From NCBI RefSeq assembly GCF_041886205.1, contig NZ_CP169029.1: a stretch of DNA of 64,000 nucleotides, one strand, 5' to 3'. Below, piece after piece: positions 52,261-52,479 of this stretch; positions within the stretch are counted from its first letter, which is position 1; the number at the start of each line of letters is the position of its first letter. The translations under genes were made by a program, and so were the position numbers. This stretch comes from Escherichia coli (lineage in GTDB: Bacteria > Pseudomonadota > Gammaproteobacteria > Enterobacterales > Enterobacteriaceae). The notes under the pieces are model-generated. The model was not told the origin of the DNA and ran no database searches. It saw only the letters and a list, made by a program, of their open reading frames with translations.

Positions 52261-52386
52261 ATAAACCAGGCCAAGCGTATGCTGGTTGATCCAATAATAT
52301 CCCCCAAGCGCAGCAATATTAATATTCACCTGCAATGGGTCGATATCTGGCTTAAAAATATTGTGTTTCTTTCCTTCATCCAATAA
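51835..52386 (+). CDS. tnpA: IS200-type TnpA (HuH Y1 transposase); C-terminus probably extended into flanking DNA
   Basis: HVHLL (HuH) motif and catalytic Tyr region (SPGYFASS); the ORF runs through the terminal hairpin to a stop at 52386. Confidence 0.75.
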
Positions 52387-52479
52387 GGATTCCATTAACT
52401 GCAAGTGCGCATGGTTAATTTCTAAGAGACGCTGTGATTTTGCATAATGCACACCTTTACTTTGATTTTCACTATGCAC
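52282..52479 (-). pseudogene. ytfA: Remnant of a small regulator gene, ytfA-like, abutting the IS200/IS605 end
   Basis: First ~66 codons of track ORF 52057..52479 read as a plausible protein before running antisense into tnpA; position matches K-12 ytfA. Identity is from memory only. Confidence 0.35.

Follow-up and report, generated by a model that had tools for sequence, protein, structure and literature searches.

The closest described systems are IS608 of Helicobacter pylori and IS609 itself. In IS608 TnpA, Tyr127 is the catalytic residue, as the IS608 structures show, and the element reportedly uses TTAC and TCAA as its sites. The tnpA and tnpB genes of IS608 run in the same direction, and those of IS605 are divergent, like those of IS609. 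For IS609, the cleavage sites have been given as TTAT on the left and TCAA on the right (PMC6906374), and the single copy in K-12 never transposed in mutation-accumulation lines (PMC5009759). The host gene considered below, ytfA, was found in a survey of TetR regulators to be present in only some E. coli strains (PMC6790063). In the parts of the literature naming IS609 that were consulted, no description of a stop-loss allele of tnpA was found. Here we describe a copy of IS609 lying in ytfA within a 64-kb window, by which we mean the whole stretch of Escherichia coli DNA analysed.

An IS609 element between ytfB and yjfZ

Alignment of the window to the empty sites of ST18 and CFT073 delimits an element of 1748 bp at 50513..52260 on the minus strand, at a locus between ytfB and yjfZ of E. 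coli. Copies named 'IS200/IS605-like element IS609' by PGAP match it at 97.5-100% identity along the 1748 bp, and the top strand of IS609, which is the tnpB sense strand, is the minus strand of the window. Strain C9 carries the identical 1748-bp element, in which PGAP calls InsQ/TnpB intact and tnpA a pseudogene, and the copy in strain 605 has 1 difference from that of the window. No second IS609 left end was found elsewhere in the 64-kb window. The features of the locus are as follows.

50405..50512, minus strand: downstream fragment of ytfA, comprising the last 35 codons and the stop and overlapping the end of ytfB; annotated as a PGAP pseudo-CDS in C9
50513..50543, minus strand: right end (RE) of the element, with a hairpin at 50522..50543 (TCCACGTCC TTCA GGGCGTGGA), then AGGATGTCAA and the TCAA cleavage site at 50513-50516
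50556..51764, minus strand: tnpB/insQ, of the RNA-guided endonuclease family; 402 aa, open, with Pfam HTH_OrfB_IS605, OrfB_IS605 and Cas12f1-like_TNB
51772..52200, plus strand: canonical coding part of tnpA, 143 codons, a Y1 HUH transposase; the same coordinates in O157:H7 give the intact 143-aa WP_000604943.1
52201..52203, plus strand: CAG (Gln) where canonical tnpA has its TAG stop, through T-to-C at 52201; TAG in homologues
52201..52386, plus strand: read-through extension of 61 codons, 20 in the element (52201-52260) and 41 antisense to ytfA (52261-52383), with the stop TAA at 52384-52386
52214..52255, minus strand: left-end (LE) subterminal imperfect hairpin, with outer stem GCGCCGTA/TACGGCGC, inner stem CCCCGTCC/GGGCGGGG and loop TTCA
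52261..52264, minus strand: TTAT target tetranucleotide (ATAA on the plus strand), directly 5' of the left end; host DNA, read in the empty site as ...GGTTTAT/CACATCAG...
52261..52555, minus strand: upstream fragment of ytfA, corresponding to residues 83-180 of a 215-aa regulator; the GTG at 52479 starts the K-12-style ORF

BLAST against the IS-free alleles gave homology up to 50509 and again from 52260, and the exact edges were set by base-by-base reading. With the slash marking the insertion point and single brackets enclosing the element, the empty site of ST18 and CFT073 reads ...CTGATGTG/ATAAACC... (longer reading, ...CTGATGTG/ATAAACCAGG...), and the occupied site reads ...CTGATATG[TTGACATCC...GCGCACCGG]ATAAACC... 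(longer reading, ...CTGATATG[TTGACATCCTCC....GGCGCACCGG]ATAAACCAGG...). On the minus strand, in the tnpB sense, this becomes TTAT/CCGGTGCG... at the left end and ...GGATGTCAA/ at the right end. The empty-site comparison defines the insertion point exactly and sets the junction between IS and flank at the left end at 52260/52261, instead of at 52282, where the initial annotation had begun the junction region. It also reveals neither a target duplication nor the loss of any host base. Identical ends with an ATAA flank were observed at 6 of 6 sites (ytfA, yfeD/gltX, yeaQ, yedK, yidH and ydcO/ydcL), and the same ends with the ATAA/TTAT flank occur in a Proteus relative and in a metagenomic relative.

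Both ends fold stably as DNA. The left-end hairpin has a centroid of -17.9 kcal/mol and a z score of -3.7 against shuffled sequences, with 0 of 200 shuffles folding as well, and the right-end hairpin has z = -3.3, the right end being identical in other IS609 copies. The left-end hairpin together with TTTT on the tnpA sense strand was also considered as an intrinsic terminator, which would yield non-stop mRNAs; this candidate was rejected, as it was left uncalled by the terminator scan and has 4 T's only. An Rfam scan of 50000-53000 returned sub-threshold matches only, namely RAGATH-18 (29.5 bits against a gathering score of 44.9) and HgcC at 50500-50623 on the minus strand (24.6 bits, below the gathering score of 50), the latter spanning the 3' end of tnpB and the right end. 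The interval 50500..50623 on the minus strand is the expected place of a TnpB guide (omega) RNA scaffold, and the sub-threshold HgcC match may hint at one. If so, the host sequence CATATCAGTATGGTTT adjoining the right end would be the TnpB guide. A related arrangement of ends was seen on the plasmid pSOI121-1 (NZ_AP035758.1), where positions 2994-3043 hold the 46-nt TTGACATCCTCCACGCCCTGAAGGACGGGGTTTTACGGCGCACCGG followed by ATAA, in which the start of the IS609 right end is fused to the finish of the left end via the shared hairpin. This sequence lies between a terminase gene and a convergent gene of the P1-like plasmid and may be what remained, as a scar or miniature element, when the whole IS interior was deleted.

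The coding content is that expected of the family. The start of tnpA at 51772 on the plus strand lies only 7 nt from tnpB on the minus strand, and the two genes are transcribed divergently. The ORF 51772..52386 on the plus strand encodes 204 aa and contains a complete Pfam Y1_Tnp domain at residues 18-139 (E = 7.8e-42). Matches to Y1 transposases in the PDB reach E = 1e-17 to 1e-20 with the HUH motif and the catalytic Tyr aligned; in the alignment to 2a6m the HUH motif is H69-V70-H71, and Tyr135 falls opposite Tyr127 of IS608 TnpA. Thus the element has the Y1 TnpA, the TnpB, the subterminal hairpins without terminal inverted repeats and the insertion at a fixed tetranucleotide without duplication that mark IS200/IS605 members. 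What it lacks is the canonical tnpA of an autonomous copy, 143 aa with its own stop, since CAG replaces TAG.

The interrupted ytfA remnant

On the minus strand, the ORF 52479..52057 encodes 140 aa, of which 73 codons, counted from the GTG, belong to ytfA and the following 67 are antisense to the IS. The 73 codons correspond to residues 108-180 of a 215-aa TetR-family protein in CFT073, which means that the K-12-style 'ytfA' ORF represents the C-terminal part of that regulator and not the start of a gene. The upstream frame is open to 52602 and is labelled by PGAP 'TetR/AcrR family... incomplete'. Its only Pfam match is TetR_C_29 (E = 1.3e-26), and no Pfam match to the HTH domain (TetR_N) was found in the ytfA frame. 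The C-terminal ligand/dimerisation domain represented by TetR_C_29 is present, but the IS interrupts it directly past the codon that corresponds to Tyr180. When the element was excised in silico by joining 52261..52602 to 50405..50512, a single open frame resulted, with the junction ...GLVY/HISMV... and a product equivalent to residues 83-215 of the CFT073 regulator (four mismatches, ~97% identity). In K-12 ORF numbering, the IS divides ytfA into 73 + 35 codons.

These observations bear directly on the proposal of the initial annotation that ytfA lost its 3' part to the IS, by truncation or replacement, and kept its first ~66 codons. The ORF from the GTG at 52479 does pass from ytfA directly into antisense IS, as that proposal would have it, and the IS does cause the break: the same ytfA truncation point was not found in the IS-free strains ST18, CFT073 and AR_0128, all of which read across the site. 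However, the 3' part, 35 codons and the stop, is intact at 50405..50512, immediately past the other IS end, and excision restores the frame; moreover, the remnant codons are 73 in number and internal to the gene. A loss or replacement of the 3' part is therefore hardly credible.

Three states of ytfA can be distinguished. The full 215-aa TetR/AcrR regulator stands beside a reductase/CoA-transferase cluster in CFT073 and AR_0128; a K-12-like allele without the N-terminal part, next to yjfZ and IS-free, is found in ST18; and the truncated allele with IS609 inside it is carried by the window, C9, O157:H7 and others. Similarity at the DNA level to the full-length CFT073 gene ends at 52555, with the breakpoint at 52555/52556. 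Beyond this, CFT073-type strains have a cluster of ketoacyl-ACP reductase, enoyl-CoA hydratase and CoA-transferase genes following the regulator, and the window has yjfZ. The N-terminal 82 residues, with the HTH, were lost through an event independent of the IS, because IS-free K-12-like strains show the same truncation. IS609 inside full-length ytfA was found in 0 of 40 records sampled across the junction-query ranking, and for this reason the N-terminal truncation most likely preceded the insertion. As ytfA was then already without its HTH domain, IS609 would have hit a dead gene. The neighbouring gene yjfZ (DUF2686) is itself interrupted in the window: a 1310-bp IS3-family element at 52984..54293 (orfA 53038..53364, orfB 53361..54251) breaks it after ~52 codons; C9 and ST18 both have an intact yjfZ.

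Loss of the tnpA stop codon

The initial annotation had noted that the TnpA frame has no stop inside the element, and this is borne out by the ORF 51772..52386, which runs through the hairpin at 52214..52255. Its reading of an extension into the flank was likewise real, with a length of 126 nt (41 codons and the stop) and not ~140 nt, of which 123 nt are antisense to ytfA before the TAA. The canonical TAG position is 10 nt before the left-end hairpin, and no in-frame stop occurs in the last 60 nt of the element after the codon at 52201; with no backup stop left in the element, the frame therefore crosses the hairpin to the first chance TAA. The probability of 61 stop-free codons by chance is (61/64)^61 ~ 0.05, and neither open stretch is statistically remarkable.

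Comparison with homologues locates the change. TnpA-like proteins at least 90% identical to the in-element part have erratic lengths of 141-254 aa and come from E. coli wherever the organism is named, and most relatives at 80-87% identity (Salmonella, Proteus, Photorhabdus, Morganella, Klebsiella) are uniformly 138, 143 or 146 aa. Close relatives end in ...QQQTPG/S/D at 138-146 aa, a C-terminus shared by 7 of 7 sequences read. At the homologous codon, Salmonella has GGT TAG TCGGAAAACC, Proteus AGT TAG TTAAAAAACC and the window GGT CAG GTGGAAAACC. GGT TAG GTG is read in an IS609 on a Logan contig (L011) that shares 98.2% identity with the window copy. The orthologous ytfA::IS609 insertions of O157:H7 H6437 and OkiPb01695 also have TAG and a normal 143-aa tnpA, in keeping with the suggestion that TnpA is C-terminally extended in the present copy, as its sequence predicts. 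The 143-aa O157:H7 protein WP_000604943.1 is PGAP-intact and bears the UniProt name 'IS609 transposase', and the window tnpA differs from the O157:H7-type copy at 51863 and 52201 only. The read-through thus results from a single T-to-C stop loss at 52201 and is not a design feature of IS609.

The catalytic-aligned tyrosine is followed by 28 residues in IS608 TnpA, by 8 in canonical IS609 and by 69 in the window copy, and solved Y1 transposases align up to residue 140-145 only. Any protein made would probably carry a 61-aa non-conserved tail beginning 9 residues past the catalytic tyrosine. It follows for the databases that 204-aa 'IS200/IS605 family transposase' entries are stop-loss read-through products whose last 41 residues are antisense ytfA.

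We further surveyed the insertion and the two alleles in 5426 complete E. coli genomes. The junction query was mostly present in 1744 of them (about a third). Allele-specific 38-mers, which are unable to seed across the variant base, detected CAG in 4198 genomes (6620 places) and TAG in 1411 (1583 places), so that CAG makes up ~81% of the allele-typed places; these counts cover all IS609 sites, not ytfA alone, and are lower bounds, because copies with other SNPs inside the 38-mer are missed. For ytfA, eight copies were read base by base, as megablast cannot separate alleles lying 60 nt from the junction. A 63-mer exactly matching the window type occurs in 386 complete-genome records, and the exact 204-aa product is found in NCBI on 131 contigs (EET4965092.1 and others). 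CAG occurs at several insertion sites, namely gltX, yeaQ, ydcO/ydcL and ytfA, with at least five further flank-encoded tails among the proteins. At least two E. coli haplotypes show the change from TAG to CAG, as does the lineage of a metagenomic element (L009) that is ~78% identical to IS609. At the linked sites 52163, 52170 and 52219, the window has the bases of the TAG haplotype, and every other examined CAG copy has T/C/T; the window CAG therefore stands on a TAG-type haplotype and most likely arose in situ.

Decay is widespread among IS609 copies. Of 13 copies read (the window's and 12 others), only 2 retain the canonical tnpA. Five have lost the stop, with frames of 180, 204 or 320 aa set by the flank; in three the frame ends after codon 95, and three contain a frameshift. 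An open tnpB, by contrast, is present in 12 of the 13, so that the nuclease gene outlasts that of the transposase. Divergence between copies is 1.4-2.6%, both within one locus and between loci. Two further observations concern individual copies. The end after codon 95 (window-equivalent 52057-52059) is found at three loci, ytfA in GON1437, yedK and ydcO/ydcL. In the GON1437 ytfA copy, it is caused by TTA-to-TGA at 52058, which is absent from other ytfA copies, and the sharing of this stop points to gene conversion between copies or to the spread of an already defective element. The L009 element (JGI metagenome contig Ga0615035_0141, 1548-2924) has CAG for the tnpA stop, a broken tnpB and adjoining fragments of a group II intron reverse transcriptase.

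Several other accounts of the missing stop were weighed. A sequencing or assembly error has a negligible chance of being right, given the identical element in C9, the copy in strain 605 with 1 difference, the 63-mer in 386 records and the protein on 131 contigs. The CAG might have been imported by gene conversion from another IS609 copy. Derived defects are common to different loci, as with the codon-95 stop of ytfA in GON1437, yedK and ydcO/ydcL, and ytfA copies resemble each other no more closely than they resemble copies at other loci; such shared defects indicate that copies exchange sequence, and the CAG of the window could therefore stem from a short conversion tract instead of an in-situ mutation. 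However, the TAG-haplotype bases at 52163, 52170 and 52219 would confine the tract to less than ~48 bp, and we regard the import of CAG as unlikely. It has also to be asked whether tnpA without its stop still works, and has perhaps been selected, as a variant with a flank-encoded tail that drove or tolerated the spread of IS609. CAG holds ~81% of the typed places and is joined to many distinct flanks, TAG-to-CAG appears in L009 as well as on two or more E. coli haplotypes, and the catalytic residues are intact; furthermore, IS608 tolerates a natural tail of 28 aa past the Tyr, which means that a C-terminal tail need not abolish activity. On the other hand, neither the sequence nor the length of the tails is conserved (ORFs of 160 to 320 aa), and the stop is kept by relatives across Enterobacterales; because of these two points in particular, we consider a functional or selected extension improbable. 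In addition, copies at different sites are ~2% apart, which excludes a recent burst, many copies have frameshifts or premature stops, L009 has decayed as well, its tnpB being broken, and the K-12 IS609 is inactive (PMC5009759). A more specific version holds that the stop loss is a recurrent and favoured change, in which a flank-dependent tail behind the catalytic-tyrosine helix attenuates or alters TnpA and so stabilises copies for TnpB. It would explain the CAG majority and the at least two or three origins (two E. coli haplotypes and L009), and we hold it to be very improbable.

Taken together, our preferred explanation, to which we assign a probability of roughly 0.88, is an insertion of IS609 into a dead ytfA, a one-base loss of the tnpA stop and neutral decay of an old copy. 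What was observed directly is where the element begins and ends, its target, the frame restored by excision, the base that abolishes the stop and how frequent this base is in the species. As to the order of events, IS609 would have inserted by the single-strand 'peel and paste' route 3' of TTAT inside ytfA, a target already without the N-terminal HTH, splitting it into 73 + 35 codons with the host DNA fully kept. A later T-to-C at 52201 would then have turned TAG into CAG and let the tnpA frame run to the TAA at 52384-52386. This stop loss probably arose in situ on an O157-type haplotype, and the change would represent neutral decay of a vertically inherited, essentially immobile old copy, in line with the PGAP pseudogene call. 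Nevertheless, the intact catalytic motifs of the window TnpA (H69/H71, Tyr135) count against reading the gene firmly as a dead pseudogene. Stop-less elements may have moved, on their own or mobilised in trans, because CAG is the majority allele and is present at several different insertion sites.

The window case is a common, already annotated and ancient insertion, and an ordinary decay of an old IS copy. Its biological weight is small, as the insertion is RefSeq-annotated, is found in roughly one in three complete E. coli genomes and breaks an already non-functional gene. For IS biology, it is one more example of tnpA decay with tnpB staying open.

Comparison with known systems

The nearest counterpart is the canonical IS609 at ytfA of O157:H7 (TnpA WP_000604943.1 / UniProt A0A0H3JMP4), which shares the site, orientation, ends, cleavage sites and intact tnpB and is 98.5% identical over 1748 bp. 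In contrast to that copy, the window has CAG (204 aa) for TAG (143 aa), and the difference at 51863 makes residue 31 of the window protein Lys, not Arg. IS608 of Helicobacter pylori (PDB 2a6m, 2vjv) is more distant and belongs to the same Y1 HUH fold family (E = 1.5e-19), with the HUH motif and Tyr135/Tyr127 aligned. The likeness extends to the subterminal hairpins, to a right end that closes with TCAA and to the mode of insertion, both elements entering 3' of a tetranucleotide that they do not duplicate. The two elements differ in the target, which is TTAT for the window IS609 and TTAC for IS608, and the 155-aa IS608 TnpA has its own stop.

As for the host gene, K-12 ytfA (b4205) and CFT073 WP_001298021.1 (215 aa) are the same gene as the one interrupted here, whose fragments match residues 83-215 at ~97%. 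Compared with the K-12-like ytfA of ST18, the window remnant has the same N-terminal truncation and is additionally split by IS609. The insQ remnant of K-12 at ydcO/ydcL belongs to the same family and has, like the window copy, an open tnpB, a defective tnpA and the CAG allele, but it lies at another locus and its tnpA also stops after codon 95.
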